Assembly (NCBI RefSeq): GCF_006345805.1 | Contig: NC_043005.1 | Location: forward strand, 88,288,001 to 88,352,000 | Reading direction: 5' to 3' | DNA: 64,000 bases | Origin: Octopus sinensis | Taxonomy: Eukaryota | Shown: positions 3,665 through 24,795 of the stretch, piece after piece | Numbering within the stretch: position 1 is the first letter of the stretch | How the letters are laid out: each line of letters begins with the position of its first letter | Program-made: the position numbers and the translations under genes | Notes under the pieces: model-generated | Told to the model about the DNA's origin: nothing | The model's input: the letters and a program-made list of their open reading frames with translations, nothing else | Database searches by the model: none

Positions 3665-4536
3665 AGTAAATGGTGGGGTTGTATTTAACCACACGTGGAG
3701 AAATGATAGGAGAGGAAAAATTGAAAGTAAATCTTAATAAAAATGGGTGTATGAAAAATTAAAAAAGAAAAAAATAATAAATCAAACCAATTTTCATAGC
3801 AAGGCAAATTTTCAAGATTTGGAAGGGGAAAAGAATGTTTTTAGAATTGAGGAAGGGAAAAAAGAAACTTACAATGTTTTTTCAAAAAAATAATAGTACA
3901 TATATACAAAAATTAATAAATAAGTATACCAATACATTGTAGTGTCTTATGCTTTTAGAGTTCAATAATAGTCCTTGGAAAAACTTCTTTGGAGGATTAG
4001 GATGCACGTGCTTAAATGTAGTGTTTAGTTTAAAGAGTTGGGTGAAAATGTGTCAAAACAGGAAATGGGGTAGGAGTTATACAGTTCCTGTGAGTAAGGG
4101 GAGACAATTCTGTGGATTTTATGCTCTTTAATTGGGATGATTGATTTTTTGTCAAACAGGATGCTTATATCAATTTTTGTCAGATAGGACGCTAGAAAAA
4201 GGAATATGGTCACCGTGGAGTTTGCATATTAAGTCGCGTTTGGAATTTTTCAATAAAAAGATTCTCCTTGTTGATTCTTCCTTGTGTAGAGATTCTGTCT
4301 TTACATTGGTAGAAAGGGAGTATGTGAAATTTGGGATTTTTATCTCTAACGCAAGAGTCTATGTGGCTACTGAATGGAATTTGACGGTGTTGTGGGAGAT
4401 TTATCTGTTCTTTATGGACTGTTACTCTTCTGCGTAAAGGAAGAACTGATGCAGCCTATAGGTGCAGGAAGGACAGTGTGTGTTTGTGTGTATTTAATCA
4501 GGTGAATTTTAAGTTTGTCTCTTCAATCTTTTTCAG

Positions 4537-4691
4537 ATTTGGTCGCAAAAAAGTGATAATTGTGTGTTTATTTCTGCAAGGGTCAACCGGAATAGCAACG
4601 GCCTTCATCTCCAACATTTATGCCATATATGTGTTACGTTTTCTCACTGCTGTTGGTGGTGCTGGATCCTACATTCCCTCAGTTGTCTTTG
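4537..4691 (+). CDS. SLC22-like gene, exon B (155 nt)
   Basis: cag|A...G|gtaag; completes the MFS motif DRFGRKK and includes ...YVLRFLTAVGGAGSYIPSVVF; phase fits exon A. Confidence 0.92.
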
Positions 4692-4849
4692 GTAAGCAAC
4701 CAACAATAAAACACCATAAATATTCACTTTCAAATTTGAATGCAAGTTCAGTTATGTTCTGTGTTTTATTCTTTGTTTGCTTTCATCGATTAGAAGGAGC
4801 TCTTTCAGATGTTTTAATCATATCAACAACTTTGTTTTATCTCATTACG

Positions 4850-5707
4850 CAAGAAATGTTTCGTTGCTCTGAGTGGAAAGGCAACAGTCTTCATGAGGCA
4901 GTGTGCCAAGTGACATTCCTGTGTTCGCAAGTTGTAAAATTTGTGTTCTTGGGATCACGTATATGGTGTAGTCTGCTCTTTTTGACAAGGACAGGAAGTT
5001 GGAACAAAGAACCAACGTGAAATTTTTCGTCAAACTTGGCAAGTCTGCTACAGTGACATTGAGCATGCTTCAGGAATCTTACGATGATGAGGCAATGAGT
5101 TGTTCGCAGTTTCAAGTGGCACGGATGCTTCAAAAGCGGAAGAACGTCCCTGGGAGACGATGAACCTTCAGGAAGACCTGCAACGAGCGCCACCTACCGG
5201 AAATGTTGAGAGCATTGATCAGCTTGTGCCTGAGGATGGACGGATGGCAACGAACGAGGTTTTGAAGCGTTTGAGGGAGGACATTCGGCGAAAGCGATCG
5301 GATTTGTGGAGAACAAAGAATTAAAATTCTTAACGACGGTAGTGCCCCCTGTCACCGAGCTCTCCTCACCTGTGAGTTTCCCGCCAAAGCAACATGGCAT
5401 CGCTTCCACAACCGCTATATTCGCCAGATCTTGCACCTGCGCACTTCCGTTTCTTCCCACAAGATGAAAATGCAGCTCAAAGGTTGCCATTTCGACACCA
5501 TTGTCAAGATCAAGAGAGAAAGACAGAAAGTCCTCGACATGCTTACAGAAAACGACTTCCAGTCTGGATACCAAAACTGGCAGGAACACTGGGACGGGTG
5601 TATTGTTGCGTAAGGTGGCTATTTCGAAAGAGATGGTGTTTAAAACTTAGATAAGTTATTTTTTATTAAGCATAAATAGTCTGGGAAGGTCTTGATACCA
5701 CCTCGTA
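4850..5707 (+). mobile_element. Degenerate, internally deleted mariner transposon
   Basis: Remnants EQRTNVKFFVKLGKSA, LKRLREDIRRKR and PQPLYSPDLAP; right TIR ends ...GATACCACCTCGTA. Left boundary is approximate. Confidence 0.85.
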
Positions 5708-11834: not shown

Positions 11835-12090
11835 CACACCATACTAATCATATCTGTCAGGCATGTGGAAAAGAGTGTAATTCGGCAGGAGGACTTAAAC
11901 GACATGCAAAGGTACATGAAGCCCAGTTACAACTACAGCCGGCTATTACCGGTAGAGGTTTTTGTTGCCAATTCTGTACTAGACATTGTAGATCTTTACC
12001 TGGGCTAAAAAGTCACATTCGATCACAGCACCAATAACTGTTAAGCTTCATGCAATGGCCATACTTGATAACGAGGGGGCAGCCGCAATA
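11835..12090 (+). mobile_element. Probable RTE-clade LINE 3' end with two C2H2-like motifs, inserted in (ATGT)n
   Basis: CQACGKECNSAGGLKRH and CQFCTRHCRSLPGLKSHIRSQH*, then a short 3' tail; no splice context was identified. Confidence 0.6.
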
Positions 12091-12233
12091 ATGTATGTAT
12101 GTATGTATGTATGTATGTATGTATGTATGTATGTATGTATGTACGTATGTATGTATGTATGCATGTATGTATCAGAGTGTGTGTTCATATATATGTGTGT
12201 ATGTGGTTGTATTTTCCGTTTTCTATTTGCAAG

Positions 12234-12446
12234 TTTCCTAGACGAGTCTCCCCGATGGCTCCTCAATAAAAAGAGAACAAAAGATGCCAACTTAATTCTT
12301 AGCAACATCGCCAAACTGAATAAAACAGTTTTGCCTCAAACAGAAATCGTCAACATTTTCTCATCGAACAAGAAAAAAGTAGAAATCTGGAAAATGTTTA
12401 CCATTCCTCAGCTTCTAAAACGGACCCTAATTTTGATGCTAAACTG
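12234..12446 (+). CDS. SLC22-like gene, exon D (213 nt)
   Basis: aag|T...TG|gtgagt; FLDESPRWLL (PESPRWL signature) through to LLKRTLILMLNW. Confidence 0.92.
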
Positions 12447-12484
12447 GTGAGTGATATTACATTTACCATTTTCTGTGTATTCTT

Positions 12485-20095: not shown

Positions 20096-21169
20096 TTTGT
20101 CCGCCACCAATGCTTGACAACTGGTGTGGGTGTCTTTATGTCCCTGTAACTTAGCAGTTCAGATAAAGAAATCAAAATAAAAGGTGCCAAGCATAAAAAT
20201 ATAAATAAAACGAAACAGATAGAAACAAAGCATATATAAATAAATATATACATACACACGCACACACATTATGTAGGTAGGTAGGGTAAATCGCAGCTGT
20301 TTCCTCTTGAATCGCATCTGCTTATTCCATTATTACAATCCAGTATGAAGTTAGTGTTGTTGTTGTTGTTATTGTTGTTGTTGTATTAATGCAAGGTACA
20401 AATGAGTGTTGGAAATTCTGGAAATATTGTTTGCAGAGTTATATTATAACAAACCAGGAAGTTGGAACATTTCTTGGTATTATTTATTCCCCATTACACA
20501 TGTTTCGTTGGTGAATGGGAATTACAAAGTTTTACATGTTAGATAAACATGTCAGAGATTTCCTGTTAGAAAGTCTTCAGACAGAAAAGTGAATAACACA
20601 AAATTTACATTTGGTTGAAGCGTTTAAATAGATTTAATAAAAAGGAGTTTTATAGAAAGTTGGGCGAAAAGGGAGAGCAAATTAAAAAGTGAAGAAAAGG
20701 GAAGAGAGAGTTACAAACACACACACACACACACATACACACATGCAATGTCATCTCTGATGAATCCTCATTCACTCTATTTTATAGATTTGGGGTAAGT
20801 TTATATCTAGAGACAGCGCAAAGAAGCCTTCAACACTGACTGCTTAGTCCTGACTGTGAATAATGAAAGTGGCTCTGTGATTATTTAGGTAGCCAAAATA
20901 TGAAATTCTCTTGGCACGACATGGCAGATTTAAAGCCTAGGATTATCGGAGTATTTTAGCTGGTCATATCCATCCAGTGGTGTAAATATTGTTCCCTGGT
21001 GGGAGCACAATCTTCCAGGTCAGTAATGTGACAATTCACATGATTGTAATTCAGAATTGGTAAGAAGACCACAAAAATGAAGTAGACCACCCCTACAATC
21101 ATTCCACCCAAACATAACTGAACGTTTATGATGCATTTTGGTGTAACAAGCGAGAAGCTGTTTCCTTAT

Positions 21170-21365
21170 ACCATTGTTGTGGAAAGATCTAAAGAAGGTT
21201 TTATTTGAAGAATGAATCAAAATTCCCTTCATCCAGGACTTGTACACGTCAATTCCTCAACATATTAAATCTGTGATTAATGCCAAACATGGACCAATTC
21301 CATATTAAATAATACAATTTCCATTTAATCCGGTCTTTCCATTATTTTATCCAAACTCTTTTAGA
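21170..21365 (+). mobile_element. Tc1-like transposase 3' fragment
   Basis: IQDLYTSIPQHIKSVINAKHGPIPY* resembles the Tc1 C-terminus. Confidence 0.6.
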
Positions 21366-21515
21366 GAAGCCAGAGAATGGATTATTGAAATTATGTACAG
21401 ATTAGTTAGCCATTCAAAGAATCATATTAAGGGTTCACATGCCTGTGAAATACCGAAAAGGGTTTTTTTCTCTCTTTTACTAAAAACTTCTGTCTTTTCT
21501 CTTTTTCTTTTTCAG

Positions 21516-21697
21516 CCCATCGATGGATGTTAACTGCCAGTTCGATATTAGGCCGTTTGTTTATCACTGCATCTTTTGGAATCGTGTATTTATACACTTT
21601 GGAATTATATCCAACTTGTATAAGAAACGGTGCATTGGGGGCTTTGTCAACCTTTGCACGTGTTGGTGGGGCTTTGGCACCTTACACTCTCAACTTT
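21516..21697 (+). CDS. SLC22-like gene, exon F (182 nt)
   Basis: cag|CC...TTT|gtaggt; [46 protein letters not shown] carries the ELYPT and ARxG motifs. Confidence 0.93.
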
Positions 21698-22415
21698 GTA
21701 GGTATTTAGATTCTTTCAGACTTGCTATTTGTTTTGTTGTTCGTCCCTTTTGTTAGTCCATCCATCGTGGAACCAGCACAACTAGTAAAGAGACAGAGCT
21801 AGGCTTATCTTTCTATGGATTTACATAACATACGAATAAGGAAATATTATCCATCAGACCAGGCACAATGGCTATAAACCTTTTGTTACCGTATTTGGGA
21901 TGAAATACACTGTATTTGTTTCAAAGAATTTAGTAAAATAACTTAGCCATTTCTTACCACATTTCTGAAATACACAGCCTTTGTTTTAATTAATTTTGAA
22001 ATAACGAAGAATTTAGTGGAATAACTTTGTCATTATTAAGCTGCTACTTCAGGTGGCGAGCTGGCAGAATCATTAACAGATTGGAACACAGATGTCAAAT
22101 TAAGTACTTTTTCTCTAAATAATTTATTTTACTTTCAAACTTTTATGCTGGTTGTTTTTTTCCTAGCACTCCTTTACAATTCCCTTCTTGATGTTTCCAT
22201 TGATTATTTATTTCCACTCATCTGACCAAACGGTTGTCATTTTCCGATTCCACACGTATTTATTTGTATTGTTGTTTCCTGAATGAATTTGCTTGCGCCT
22301 TCTATTTATCTGTCCTATGTCTTGATTTCATTTGTCGTCTGAGATAAATTAGGTATTGTAATGGTAACTGAGAATATCCCTGCCCCCAGGTATTACTGGG
22401 TATCTCAGCTAGTAC

Positions 22416-22478
<63 letters not shown>

Positions 22479-22494
22479 TATATATATATATATG

Positions 22495-22530
<36 letters not shown>

Positions 22531-22544
22531 TGTATGTATGTATG

Positions 22545-22598
<54 letters not shown>

Positions 22599-22603
22599 AT
22601 ATA

Positions 22604-23260
22604 AGTCATACGATATAGTGTATATTTAGACCCATAATGAATCCACTTGTAGGAATTCAACACGCTAGAAAGAACAGCTAGGTTCCATAACCACAAAAAT
22701 TAGGGATAAAATTCGACAGGAACGAATTGAAAAATGAAAACATTTTACCATCTAGTTTCCTGGACCAACAGGTTTCTGATTTTAGTTTAGCGAGTCAAGG
22801 AACTCGCTAGGTGCAATCTTCTTCAGTAGGACCACCTAGGGTTAAACGTATACACACGGGACGAACAAAACTACTTGCCCTGTGTTTATACGTCATAACT
22901 TTTTCAAAATCTACTGCGCAGCCGCAGTCCTTCGCCGGCAATAAAAAAAACCGCCAACTTTTAAAACCGAAAATTATCCAAAAAACTTACAATATTTAAT
23001 CATATCAAAGGAAAATGGAAATTAATTAAAATTTACATTTCCGGTGGTCTAACGTATAAAAAATTTAGTCAAATAGACTATATATTAGTCATACGATATA
23101 GTGTATATTTAAACACATAAGGAATCCACTCATAGGAATTCAACACACTAGAAAGAACAGCTAGGTTCTATGACCACAAAAATTAGGGATAAAATTCGAC
23201 AGGAACGAATTGAAAAATGAAAAACATTTTACCATCTTGTTTCCTGAACCAATTGATTTC

Positions 23261-23264
<4 letters not shown>
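22604..23264 (-). mobile_element. HHR-bearing partial tandem element (retrozyme/pLTR-like), 483-bp period
   Basis: 22604-22780 is repeated at 23087-23264; (TA)n on both flanks; a homologous copy lies in the opposite orientation at about 38330-38615. Confidence 0.75.
22758..22831 (-). ncRNA. Type I hammerhead ribozyme with extended stem II
   Basis: UCCUA-CUGAAGA-AGAUU...UAGCGAGU/ACUCGCUA...AAUCA-GAAA-CCUGUUGG-UC-CAGGA; one A-C mismatch next to the cleavage site. Confidence 0.7.
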
Positions 23265-23313
<49 letters not shown>

Positions 23314-23510
23314 TTGCTGAAGTGTTTAACTGGATTAAATAAACAAGAGTTTTATATATATATATGCTGAAATTAGCACTGGATGAACATGGAGGGAACG
23401 ACTTTGACCATGAGTGTGCTTCTTCAGTAATGATCTGGGGTCAAATAACAACAAAATAAACAAAACATGTTTTTAATTTCCTGCTTTTTTGTGTTTTTTT
23501 TTTCTTTCAG

Positions 23511-23674
23511 TCAGATTTGGTTCCTGGCAAGGTTGGTCGAATACTGCCGATGGTTCTTATGGGAGCACTTTCCATAACCGCGGGGCTATTTTCATTGTTA
23601 TTACCCGAAACAAACAACAGGAAAATGATGGACAACTTCAATGATTTGACCAAATCTGGACAACTGGAGTTAGC
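23511..23674 (+). CDS. SLC22-like gene, exon G (164 nt)
   Basis: cag|TCA...GC|gtaggt; ILPMVLMGALSITAGLFSLLLPETNNRKM is TM12 plus the LPET motif. If the intron is not spliced, a TAG stop falls at 23676-23678. Confidence 0.88.
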
Positions 23675-24231
23675 GTAGGTGGCTCTCACATGATATAAAC
23701 ATTATAATCATCATCATTGTTAGCATTAACATCATCATAACCATCACTATCAGCAACATAGTAATTATCATCATCATCATCATCATCATTATGAACCAAG
23801 AAGTCAGCCTTTAATCGATCATTCAACTTGCTAGAAATTACACCCTGCCACCTTAAAGAAAAAGGACACGTTGAATATTGAGGCACAATGGTAAAAAAAC
23901 GAAGCAGATGGTTTAAAGGTGGAATGCTTTTGACCCTAGGTTTCCTCAGTCAGAAGTAATCTGGGTTACTTGGTGGCAGTTTTTTGTTTGGGTAAGGGTC
24001 TGAGCCCATAGCCATTGTGGAACTCTTCAACTTTGGTAAATCTGATGCCGTTAGCATTTCTCTTGTTGTGTTGTAAGTGAAAGGCCACTGGGAGAAAATG
24101 CCAGAAGAACAATGTCCAAGAGAAGAAAGATTAATTGTTGTAGTTAGCAGTGCTGTAGCATGGGCAAGACCAAAGGACAGTTGCTCTGGACTCAAAATTC
24201 TTAGAGGCACAAGATTTCAAAAGAAAAATTA

Positions 24232-24491
24232 AAGTGGCTGTCTGGTAGGAAGTCTGCTTCCCAAGCACTTGATTCCAGGTTCAGTCCCACTGCATGATAC
24301 CTTGAGAAAGTGTTTTCTATTATAGCCTCGTGCCAACCAAAGCATTATGAGTTGATTTGGTGGACAGAAACTGCATGAAGCCTGTTGTATGTATGTACAT
24401 ATAGATAGATATAGATATAATACATTTTTGTTGATTCTACCTCTATTGGATCTACAAACCACACAAACACACACATATATATACGCGTATG

Positions 24492-24551
<60 letters not shown>

Positions 24552-24795
24552 GTATGTATGTATGTATGTATGCATGAATGTATTTATGTGTGTGCGTATG
24601 CGTTTCTGTCTCAATTTGTCCCCCCTCCCCTGCTTGACAACAAGCATTGGTGTGTATATAGTCCCAGAGCTTAGTGGTTCAGCAAAAGGGCATCATCAGA
24701 ATATGTAAGACTGTAAAAAATTCTTCAAGACAGTGCTCTAGTATGGCCACAGTCTCATGCTTGAAACAAGAAATAATAGATTAAAAAGAATAAAA
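24232..24795 (+). mobile_element. tRNA-derived SINE (family A), diverged, expanded internal microsatellite
   Basis: Head GTGGCTGTCTGGTAGG...GGTTCAGTCCC and a tail similar to 62005-62371. Confidence 0.75.

Follow-up and report, generated by a model that had tools for sequence, protein, structure and literature searches.

Within a 64,000-nt stretch of Octopus sinensis DNA (hereafter the window) lies, on the minus strand, a short element that carries a direct repeat and a hammerhead-like motif and is bordered by (TA)n. The question raised by this locus is how such an element came to be copied and inserted: the first-pass annotation described it as a retrozyme-like unit in an SLC22 intron, belonging to a family of non-coding monomers mobilised by the enzymes of Penelope-like elements (PLEs). 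The features of the locus are listed in Table 1.

Table 1. Features of the insertion and of its flanks, in window coordinates.
Feature	Position	Strand	Description or basis
Whole insertion	22599..23264	minus	single arm, 1.37 units (~666 nt) of the 484-nt unit
Terminal redundancy, 5' copy	23082..23264	minus	repeat comparison and BLAST
Terminal redundancy, 3' copy	22599..22780	minus	91.8-92.3% identity to the 5' copy
Complete hammerhead-like three-way junction, including extended helix I	22738..22847	minus	fold and alignment
Motif core	22758..22831	minus	sequence reading and alignment
Conserved block, first copy	23147..23181	minus	unit 66-100, TTTGTGGTYATAGAACCTAGCTGTTCTTTCTAG
Conserved block, second copy	22663..22697	minus	matches first copy, unit 66-100
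Internal 'L' end site	22985..23012	minus	CCTTTGATATGATTAAATAT (end point after its last letter), unit 255
Internal 'S' end zone, first unit	23072..23100	minus	TATATCGTATGACTAATATATA, unit 147-168
(TA)n flank, element's 5' side	23265..23310	none	sequence reading and repeat comparison
Compound (TA)n/(TG)n/(TATG)n microsatellite, element's 3' side	22412..22598	none	

The arm enters the unit at position 467, runs through one full unit and ends in the 'S' end zone (unit 151-168), the unit coordinates of the window copy being given by u = 23247 - w. On the minus strand the element starts with ATCAGAAATCAATTGGTTCAGGAA (23264-23241), a sequence corresponding to the 3' part of the motif seen in the family, in agreement with the earlier reading of this end. 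The direct repeat, described as 177 bp with a period of 483, is real, but the redundancy comprises 183 nt and the period is 483/484. Its first stretch (22599-22740 vs 23082-23223) shows 94% identity at a spacing of 483, and its continuation (22730-22780 vs 23214-23264) 84% identity at a spacing of 484; BLAST of the window element yielded one 183-nt terminal redundancy of 91.8% identity. The 5' copy of the redundancy begins within the hammerhead-like motif (ATCAGAAATCAATTGGTT and then CAGGAA), of which only the 3' part is present, and the equivalent of the predicted cut lies there between 23247 and 23246. An origin of the element's 5' end by ribozyme cleavage was rejected, the end being located 18 nt upstream of this first predicted cut, inside the motif; judged from its position, it is a truncation point.

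The (TA)n end noted previously was confirmed, with (TA)n flanking the element on both sides. The microsatellite on the 3' side is the target microsatellite, and the 3' border of the element is fuzzy by ~8 nt because its own TA-rich end merges with the microsatellite. The window copy terminates in the 'S' zone of its second unit (22595-22625), fusing with (TA)n, and its 'L' end site is unused as an end. The unit 66-100 block, the most conserved stretch outside the ribozyme motif, may be a hairpin or an enzyme-binding site.

Pfam analysis of the plus strand of the window gave weak MFS_1/Sugar_tr exon matches at 4385-5020, 11992-12450 and 21449-21709. The SLC22 identity claimed for the host gene was confirmed neither by Pfam nor by a PDB sequence search with the 211-aa ORF, which gave no match for it. 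An exon read by hand at ~23504-23600 had no Pfam match and is unsupported. For annotation purposes, the window copy counts as an old repeat, intronic or intergenic, that gives no indication of a function. The 3.66-kb locus that includes the insertion has an 88.7% identical duplicate 4.4 Mb away (C9:83.9 Mb), and by this comparison the window copy is older than the segmental duplication of its locus.

The 661-nt window element gave 2104 first-look candidates in the genome, a number beyond chance, and a sequence search of the genome returned family members as 54 scored matches on many contigs, with 78-100% identity. A 24-mer spanning the cut site occurred 184 times and a 20-mer tag (unit 78-97) 715 times, compared with 0 occurrences for the reversed control in each case. 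The 20-mer tag was exact in 51/91 occurrences within independently chosen loci; its 715 occurrences and this degree of exactness suggest a family size of ~1,300 copies. The family is spread over many chromosomes, its unit is AT-rich (34% GC), and in three tandem units no frame stays open for more than 62 aa. A dispersed 484-nt repeat family thus exists and codes for nothing, as had been proposed for a monomer of about 483 nt. The family is not young, the closest two copies being 96.7% identical and the median of the best identities being 92%.

The anatomy of the copies was analyzed in 99 of the first 100 places listed (of 715) for the 20-mer tag, comprising 94 non-redundant arms. Arm lengths were 49-801 nt, the longest corresponding to 1.65 units, and the 5' ends were variable, with a hot spot at unit 60-66. 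The 3' ends formed clusters at u151 (10 arms), u167-168 (22), u223-225 (6) and u254-260 (34). They occur where the UA-rich stretches of the unit, 147-168 ('S') and 246-255 ('L'), merge into genomic (TA)n; these two zones have the word TATGAYTAAWATAT in common. A TA run was present in the 3' flank of 68/94 arms, compared with 124/2640 control windows. The cluster at u223-225 is likely due to alignments that stop early in a diverged subfamily: 8/9 such arm ends among those listed belong to a subfamily that diverges after u223.

The unit border was crossed head-to-tail in 53/94 arms, none of which reaches 2 full units. The longer tandem arrays that the first-pass annotation had thought worth seeking elsewhere in the genome were not found, either among the 94 sampled arms or among the tag places listed (100/184 and 100/715). 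With plain tags, in the first 100 of 184 places listed, two tags on the same strand lay one unit apart in one case. Two candidate arrays were rejected, one being a local duplication (locus L131) and the other a 788-nt arm.

The duplication of the window locus, and that of a copy in L131, are what would be expected if the repeat had spread at the DNA level, as a small satellite or segmental duplicate moved by recombination rather than through RNA. Taken over the whole family, this explanation is refuted by the dispersal over many contigs, the variable 5' ends, the fixed 3' end zones and the TA-run flanks, and the head-to-head pairs with paired end types described below are not expected from recombination; we consider its probability negligible.

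The conserved hammerhead core (CUGAAGA, GAAA, U-C) is present in the window copy: CUGAAGA at 22826-22820 (CTGAAGA in the DNA), a long interrupted helix II, GAAA at 22776-22773, helix III ACCTGTTGGT at 22773-22764 (ACC-UGUU-GGU) and C17 at 22763, with the predicted cut between 22763 and 22762. The MFE fold of the 110 nt at 22738..22847 is the hammerhead fold (-25.2 kcal/mol), with a z-score of -1.56, which is not significant. The full hammerhead reported earlier at 22831-22758 is therefore to be read as a complete hammerhead-like motif, for it fails the Rfam hammerhead models and the neighbourhood of its core departs from the canonical one. Rfam returned no hammerhead match for the window at the gathering score, none at E<=10 for the element or for a locus with two motifs (L022), and none for 19 loci among the best 150 of 274 matches, where microsatellite look-alikes were abundant.

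Across the family, the core CUGANGA..GAAA..UH was intact in 39/75 aligned copies and in 30/61 copies chosen independently of the motif, and ACCAAUUGGU formed a perfect 10-nt palindrome in 40/61. The proximal helix I has 5 bp; helix II starts with 4 bp, followed by an internal loop and a hairpin of 8 bp. In the structure drawn by hand, 89.4% of pair cells were paired in 75 copies, compared with 17-41% when the partners were slid. Double changes that keep the pairs were seen at 36-83 (UA 54, CG 18) and 10-112 (UA 45, AU 12), counts that are inflated by shared descent, each subfamily-wide double change being possibly a single event. RNAalifold applied to the 75 copies predicted only the distal helix II hairpin, and in folds of single sequences the MFE structure was the hammerhead fold in 2/4 copies, with z-scores of only -1.2 to -1.6. 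Between stem II and G12 lies an invariant A (73/75), and the base opposite to it varies (A in 40, C in 28 and U in 6 of 75 copies). The resulting 1x1 loop adjoins the core, between A9/G12 and the first G-C pair, and stem II has no direct closure on the core by a 10.1-11.1 pair, which is usually G-C. For PLE hammerheads, an additional base on the 5' side only has been published (PMC4209133); no description of the 3' A, or of a 1x1 loop beside the core, was found. The essential C3 is replaced by U in 21/75 copies, which form a whole subfamily; judging from the alignment, either cutting would be dispensable or the variant would be tolerated. The motif is similar to the minimal Penelope hammerheads of the dimer type in the literature, and self-cutting is predicted.

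The window copy has an A at position 2.1 in place of the G of the family, resulting in a C.A mismatch, and has lost the family palindrome, reading ACCUGUUGGU instead. Because of its pre-duplication age, the helix I mismatch and the broken palindrome, it is likely inert, an old and decayed copy that is probably dead.

The negative Rfam results, the 1x1 loop at the core, the U3 subfamily and the weak thermodynamic signal could also be due to a motif that does not cut at all, being a decayed or co-opted structure (for example, an enzyme-binding or promoter part of a PLE terminal repeat) in a family spread through uncut read-through transcripts. The published minimal hammerheads of PLEs cleave poorly in vitro, according to the available text of PMC4209133, and Naiad PLEs are described as thriving without canonical hammerheads (accessible parts of PMC8557442). 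The conservation of the motif argues against this explanation: in the 61 rows chosen independently of the motif, the core columns are the best conserved, with a major-allele frequency of 0.94, the alignment as a whole having 0.86 and the helix II insert 0.80, and the 10-nt palindrome is kept perfect in 40 of them. G12 and A14 are invariant in 75/75 rows, and compensatory changes occur in helices I and II. We consider a non-cutting motif somewhat unlikely.

A head-to-head partner was found for 60/94 sampled arms. When all arms in the sample loci were taken, 52 pairs were head-to-head and 1 was tail-to-tail. Among the 36 pairs that could be fully classified by end type, 34 were S+L, 1 was L+L and 1 was S+S (binomial p = 2e-8), a count that leaves out 16 further pairs with one unclassifiable end. 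The identity between paired arms was 94.5% (n=38), compared with 87.8% when arms were taken at random (n=300; p = 6e-12), and a pair therefore represents one event.

A model in which the second arm is copied from the first by snap-back was rejected, the S arm being the longer one in at least 6 S+L pairs among those listed; in addition, the longer S arm does not contain the terminal 87 nt of the L arm.

The predicted cut site was passed by 53/94 arms, 3 of them passing it twice; the remaining arms either end within 5 nt of it (6/94) or stop before it (35/94). Ribozyme-made 5' ends were rejected as a class, the 6/94 arms within 5 nt of the cut representing no excess over the ~4 expected from a rough estimate based on the average stop rate. 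Since 53/94 arms read through the predicted cut, the template was an uncut or a re-ligated RNA. Repeated parts inside one arm were 92.6% alike (n=33), compared with 87.5% between loci (p = 7e-12). The predicted cut site of the window copy and of L068, a younger copy of the family, is bridged by contigs of runs X1-X4 and X18, whose status as RNA is uncertain and which carry no information on ends, strand or circularity. The junction that the first-pass annotation proposed to look for in reads is already present in the genomic copies, so that reads across it would not by themselves indicate circles.

This read-through would also be expected of a true circular-RNA retrozyme, in which the unit excised by the hammerhead is closed by a host ligase into a 484-nt circle and copied round and round by the PLE RT. 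Such a circle would account for copies longer than one unit, for a cut site crossed once or twice, and for the likeness of repeats within an arm; RNA circles have been shown for coral, mussel and axolotl retrozymes (available text of PMC7229834), and no long genomic arrays were found as a source of multimeric transcripts. Templates of more than one unit could, however, be provided by transcripts of the existing 570-800 nt arms, and the identity within arms (92.6%) is slightly lower than that between paired arms (94.5%), which is not predicted by a circle, the two samples being different. The absence of any arm over 1.65 units among those sampled also speaks against a circle but is not decisive, as the lengths decay smoothly. 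Copying round such a circle appears somewhat doubtful to us.

The source of the enzymes was sought among the PLEs of this genome. A GIY-YIG search gave 5029 candidates, of which 149 of the 150 scored were matches, with open frames of up to 883 aa. In 4/6 PLE tails examined, a shared tail sequence runs directly into (TA)n. No autonomous partner with a common 3' end was found among 12 PLEs: BLAST of the unit against the 12 PLE loci revealed no nucleotide similarity (best E 0.053, inside a coding region), and Smith-Waterman scores of the unit against four PLE tails were within those of shuffles. The mobilisation by PLE enzymes that had been put forward agrees with the published PLE footprint present in the family, but is not accompanied by a partner among the 12 loci.

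According to the accessible parts of bioRxiv 10.64898/2026.07.22.740005, most PLE insertions are 5'-truncated and keep only the terminal repeat. PLEs are very abundant in this genome, and the copies could be ordinary debris of autonomous PLEs, in which case they would be terminal repeats (pLTRs), solo or partial, left by a coding element; constant attachment to a PLE ORF as pLTRs was the case that the first-pass annotation had named against its own reading. This explanation is largely refuted and very improbable. A PLE ORF was contiguous with an arm in 0/132 loci (425 kb), the nearest gap being 104 nt; every arm that extends past unit position 1 continues into the unit end and not into an ORF; and the unit is unlike the 12 PLE loci.

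The explanation we favour, and consider likely, is that the locus is a single-armed insertion of 1.37 units of an ORF-less, hammerhead-like 484-nt family, probably produced by TPRT with PLE enzymes from (TA)n, on an RNA template unbroken at the predicted cut. In such an insertion, the (TA)n 3'-OH ends of the cut microsatellite would anneal to the UA-rich stretches of the unit, and the annealed ends would prime cDNA synthesis, with one priming per DNA end. The RNA template would be a multimer that had escaped cutting or a circle formed by re-ligation of a ribozyme-cut monomer, two possibilities that the available data do not separate. A motif with a perfectly palindromic helix III would be expected to cleave in the dimeric state, the mode of action published for PLE hammerheads.

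A more specific reading combines the S+L pairing with the overlapping content of the two arms, their high identity and the passage through the cut site: a PLE complex holding one RNA (a circle or a ribozyme-mediated dimer) may start cDNA synthesis at two fixed internal sites ~87 nt apart, one per DNA end of the cut (TA)n. We regard this as quite unlikely. If true, concerted two-ended reverse transcription would have left as its footprint both the inverted arms of Penelope insertions and their one-sided 'tail'. In LINE-1 twin priming, two cDNAs are primed from both DNA ends of one target, which produces an inverted 5' segment, with the two segments copied from neighbouring parts of a single linear RNA. 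Unlike these segments, the octopus arms overlap in content, each starting at its own fixed site.

Animal retrozymes and PLEs are poorly understood with regard to their insertion, to the template that is copied and to whether their hammerheads matter. With the octopus family, a case is added from an animal lineage in which literature searches found no published retrozyme; cephalopods and octopus have 0 mentions in PMC7229834 and bioRxiv 10.64898/2026.07.22.740005. Because the unit is short and non-coding, each insertion can be read end to end, and the family gives the Penelope footprint in clean numbers: two fixed end zones, each used once when an insertion has two arms, ends with TA microhomology, and read-through of the ribozyme site. 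The U3 subfamily, which has spread, is a natural test of the need for cutting in this process.

When compared with metazoan non-LTR retrozymes, as presented in the available texts of PMC7229834 and bioRxiv 10.64898/2026.07.22.740005, the octopus family has in common a short, AT-rich and ORF-less unit, a type I hammerhead-like motif, head-to-tail arrangement, dispersal and a proposed dependence on PLEs. Those retrozymes have RNAs of ~170-400 nt and families from dimers to 62-mers, whereas the octopus unit has 484 nt and its copies do not exceed 1.65 units among the sampled arms. Their canonical motif has loop-loop contacts and that of the octopus is of the minimal PLE type; RNA circles were shown for them in coral, mussel and axolotl, and those of the octopus family are predicted.

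The minimal hammerheads of PLE pseudo-LTRs, in the accessible parts of PMC4209133, have a long helix II, a helix I of 4-5 bp and an unpaired base 5' of stem II; their small palindromic helix III suggests that they act as dimers, and motifs lie close together on opposite strands. The octopus motif shares all of these features. It differs in that no ORF is located between or beside the repeats (132 loci), in a 30-45-nt insert of helix II that bears its own hairpin, in the extra invariant A on the 3' side of stem II and in having one U3 subfamily.

In EN+ PLE insertions, including those of Naiad, 5' truncation is strong, partial tandems occur, a second, 5'-truncated copy is inverted and joined at the 5' end, just one of the two ends has the 'tail' extension, and insertion is biased towards (TA)n (PMC8557442, available text); all of these traits are seen in the octopus family. 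In those elements the tail has 30-40 bp, whereas the difference from S to L is 87-104 nt in the octopus, and they are coding, whereas the octopus family is not. The S+L rule is quantified for the octopus family (34/36 pairs), and no such figure was found in the accessible parts of PMC8557442. The 'tail at one end only' of Penelope insertions has long been unexplained.

Plant LTR retrozymes, for which propagation through circular RNA has been proposed (available text of PMC4918200), are also non-autonomous and bear hammerheads. They have LTRs and type III hammerheads and use the enzymes of LTR retrotransposons, whereas the octopus element has no LTR, PBS or PPT. By its sequence features, the octopus element is of a known kind, a Penelope-type hammerhead retrozyme, for which self-cutting and RNA circles are predicted.

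Reading of 22300-23600 on the minus strand, together with a repeat finder, revealed a direct repeat in two parts: 22599-22740 against 23082-23223 (94%, spacing 483) and, from the repeat finder, 22730-22780 against 23214-23264 (84%, spacing 484). When the 661-nt element was compared with its own locus by BLAST, a single terminal redundancy of 183 nt with 91.8% identity emerged; the element therefore consists of 1.37 units with a period of 484 nt, in agreement with the repeat of about 483 nt described in the first-pass annotation. On the minus strand the element opens with ATCAGAAATCAATTGGTTCAGGAA, the 3' portion of a hammerhead-like motif; the complete motif lies downstream, and (TA)n is present on both sides of the element. 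The microsatellite that adjoins the element's 3' end at 22412-22598 is compound, with the structure (TA)n-(TG)n-(TA)n-(TATG)n-(TA)n, and gave many spurious microRNA-like Rfam matches. Unit coordinates are defined as u = 23247 - w, where w is the window position and u1 the base immediately 3' of the predicted cut.

The entire 3.66-kb locus (window 21104-24764), with the insertion and its microsatellites, is found a second time on this contig at a distance of 4.4 Mb (L002, G000:C9:83916536-83920196), with 88.7% identity for the locus and 93% for the element itself. The pair represents a segmental duplication, perhaps of a transporter gene region, and the insertion, present in both duplicates, is therefore older than the duplication. 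Weak MFS_1/Sugar_tr exon matches were detected on the plus strand at 4385-5020, 11992-12450 and 21449-21709; because the last of these returns to an early portion of the MFS profile, the window may contain two tandem transporter genes.

A first look with the 661 nt gave 2104 candidates in the 2.72-Gb genome, and the 54 matches scored were located on many contigs with 78-100% identity. Two tags were counted: a 24-mer spanning the cut site, with 184 occurrences, and a 20-mer at u78-97, with 715; each reversed control gave 0. Since the 20-mer was exact in just 51 of 91 occurrences at loci chosen by other means, these counts suggest roughly 1,300 occurrences genome-wide. No ORF was found when three tandem units were scanned, the longest open stretch being 62 aa, and the unit has a GC content of 34%; the predicted non-coding monomer family of about 483 nt is thus real, as a dispersed 484-nt unit. 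Among 97 arms (an arm being one stretch of unit sequence) no pair was closer than 96.7%, and the best identities had a median of 92%, so the family is not young. The best conserved block outside the motif, u66-100 (TTTGTGGTYATAGAACCTAGCTGTTCTTTCTAG; window 23147-23181 and 22663-22697), may be the recognition site of the enzyme. Short palindromes occur in this block, as does a possible AGAAC/GUUCU stem; the 20-mer counted above lies inside it, and its variation is too low for a covariation test.

Features of the hammerhead-like motif in the window copy
Feature	Position	Strand	Basis
Complete motif	22831-22758	-	sequence reading
CUGAAGA	22826-22820	-	sequence reading
GAAA	22776-22773	-	sequence reading
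Helix II, long, interrupted	between CUGAAGA and GAAA	-	sequence reading
Helix III, ACC-UGUU-GGU	22773-22764	-	sequence reading
C17	22763; predicted cut 22763/22762	-	sequence reading

Rfam identified no hammerhead in the window at the gathering score, none at E<=10 in the element or in the L022 copy with two motifs, and none among the best 150 of 274 matches for 19 loci. The conservation of the motif was followed in an alignment of 75 copies of a 110-nt region (76 BLAST hits reaching within 8 nt of both query ends, minus one L131 duplicate). As 14 of the 75 rows came from loci chosen through a 24-mer inside the motif, counts were redone on the other 61. The canonical core was intact in 39/75 rows and in 30/61 of those not picked through the motif, and G12 and A14 were invariant across aligned rows. 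The mean major-allele frequency of the core, 0.94, exceeded that of the whole alignment (0.86) and that of the helix II insert (0.80). Pairing holds in 89.4% of the cells of the hand-drawn structure and drops to 17-41% once the partners are slid. Subfamily-wide double changes were found in two pairs, columns 36-83 (UA 54, CG 18) and 10-112 (UA 45, AU 12), each of which may go back to a single inherited event. For the window copy and L038 the minimum-free-energy fold was exactly the drawn three-way junction, and for L022 and L069 it was a different one; fold stability was not above shuffles (z -1.2 to -1.6), and RNAalifold returned the distal helix II hairpin only.

The motif departs from the textbook form in three respects: an invariant A lies opposite a variable base between the core and the first stem II G-C pair; U occupies C3 in 21/75 rows, a whole subfamily; and helix III has just 3 bp. 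The sequence ACCAAUUGGU, a perfect 10-nt palindrome, occurred in 40/61 rows. PMC4209133 describes minimal, dimer-acting PLE (Penelope-like element) hammerheads that cut poorly in vitro; in these, helix II is long and helix I short, a base 5' of stem II is left unpaired, and helix III is small and palindromic. The family motif shares all four structural traits. In the window copy, A at 2.1 creates a C.A mismatch in helix I and the palindrome is broken (UGUU loop); this old copy is a degraded example and, with these changes, likely inert.

The shape of the insertions was analyzed in 99 of the first 100 listed places of the 20-mer (715 in total; C3:10477037 left out), a sample chosen neither by length nor by ribozyme, which yielded 94 non-redundant arms. 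Their lengths ranged from 49 to 801 nt and none reached two units. The 3' ends clustered at u151 (10 arms), u167-168 (22), u254-260 (34) and u223-225 (6). In the subfamily to which the ends at u223-225 belong, the sequence becomes divergent past u223 (8/9 such ends listed), so the alignment likely stops early. At the end sites the UA-rich sequence of the unit (...CACTATAT, ...CGTATGACTAATATATA, ...GATATGATTAAATAT) runs into genomic TA, and a TA run was present in the 3' flank of 68/94 arms against 124/2640 control windows. The 5' ends have a hot spot at u60-66 (window 23181-23187 and 22697-22703), just 5' of the conserved block, with 14/94 sampled arms, mostly from two-armed insertions and either short (about 105 nt) or wrapped (573-675 nt); transcription starting here, reverse transcriptase stopping here or a preference for joining at this point could each account for it.

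An inverted partner was present for 60/94 arms. Across all arms in the sampled loci there were 52 head-to-head junctions and 1 tail-to-tail. With S ends defined as u140-176 and L ends as u220-280, the 52 pairs comprised 34 S+L, 1 L+L, 1 S+S and 16 with an end outside both zones; S+L thus accounted for 34 of 36 classifiable pairs (binomial p = 2e-8). Single arms ended in L (17), S (13) or elsewhere (4), the window copy being a single S-ended arm. Since the content of the two paired arms overlaps and paired arms are more alike (94.5%, n=38) than random arms (87.8%, n=300; p = 6e-12), a pair represents one event. One arm being a plain copy of the other was ruled out: in at least six S+L pairs the S arm is the longer, without the L arm's last 87 nt.

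Of the 94 arms, 53 extend 5'-ward across the predicted cut site and continue into the terminal part of that unit, 3 of them crossing it twice; 35/94 stopped before it. The remaining 6/94 started no more than 5 nt away, and a rough estimate based on the average stop rate predicts about as many. Because of this read-through, the copied RNA was continuous across the predicted ribozyme site, either cut and re-ligated, as in a circular template, or uncut, as in a linear multimer. Repeated parts inside one arm (33 arms, >=80 nt redundancy) had an identity of 92.6%, compared with 87.5% between loci (p = 7e-12), which fits one unit copied twice as well as the copying of near-identical neighbouring units. 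Long arrays that might supply multimeric transcripts, which the first-pass annotation suggested looking for, were absent from the 94 arms and the listed tag places; however, arms of 570-800 nt could themselves act as templates. Family contigs from sequencing runs, whose RNA status is uncertain and which are silent on ends, strand and circles, bridge the cut site at the window copy and at L068. One contig in each of three such runs (X2, X3, X4) joins window 22767 to 22880 on opposite strands (word depth 122-325); the first point lies inside palindromic helix III, 4 nt from the predicted cut, and the second is u367 on the other strand. Either a two-armed family copy with high representation or an artefact of strand switching at the palindrome may explain this junction.

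According to PMC8557442, EN+ PLE insertions are strongly truncated at the 5' end, form partial tandems, have next to them an inverted copy that is also 5'-truncated, carry an extension at one end only and show a bias for (TA)n. The family shares truncation, partial tandem, inverted partner, one-ended extension and (TA)n, and because of this match it behaves as a Penelope insertion that lacks the gene. Coding PLEs occur in abundance in this genome: a GIY-YIG search gave 5029 candidates, 149 of the 150 scored matched, and open frames extended up to 883 aa. In 4/6 PLE tails examined the shared tail sequence led directly into (TA)n; in a fifth a TA run lay 829 nt past the stop. One coding family with C-terminal GIY-YIG (L139, L140, L137 and L133, at C10:27.57, C6:82.40, C6:53.25 and C4:16.21 Mb) shows open frames at two of these places (780 and 883 aa) and at many others (781 aa); it also has a common 3' tail (...CTTCTTTTTTACAAATATAT) directly abutting (TA)n, and CAN/ACC-rich repeats in the 3' UTR.

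The unit shared no sequence with 12 PLE loci by BLAST and nothing beyond shuffles with four PLE tails, and the partner PLE was not found among these. Some family loci have PLE coding pieces in their flanks, but none of these was contiguous with an arm in 132 loci (424,625 nt; nearest gap 104 nt). This largely excludes the copies as ordinary terminal repeats of a coding element, the contrary case named at first pass. At L141 a different hammerhead-like motif (CTGATGA...CGAAAC, then T before the predicted cut) occurs at 977 (+) and 2319 (-) in two inverted arms flanking a GIY-YIG remnant; it belongs to another Penelope family, which is likewise laid out in two arms. A U6 snRNA match in Rfam at L008 1303-1406 (48.3 against a gathering score of 44 bits) lies at a distance of 85 nt from one family arm; it probably reflects a U6 gene or retro-copy and has no relation to the family.

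The proposal of a retrozyme-like unit moved by PLE enzymes thus stands as to the PLE-type footprint and the dispersed, ORF-less unit, whereas neither arrays nor an Rfam hammerhead was found. A full-text literature search for octopus and hammerhead ribozyme gave nothing relevant by title among the papers listed, and PMC7229834 and bioRxiv 10.64898/2026.07.22.740005 contain 0 mentions of cephalopods or octopus. The feature is real, and the kind of repeat is itself already known. The family works like the metazoan non-LTR retrozymes of PMC7229834; unlike them, it is without arrays, its motif is of the minimal type with an extra 1x1 loop, and it holds a U3 subfamily. The S+L pairing rule provides a quantitative clue to DNA insertion by Penelope-type enzymes. 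The family fits the 2026 proposal of bioRxiv 10.64898/2026.07.22.740005 that the non-LTR retrozymes of metazoans derive, as non-autonomous elements, from PLE terminal repeats.
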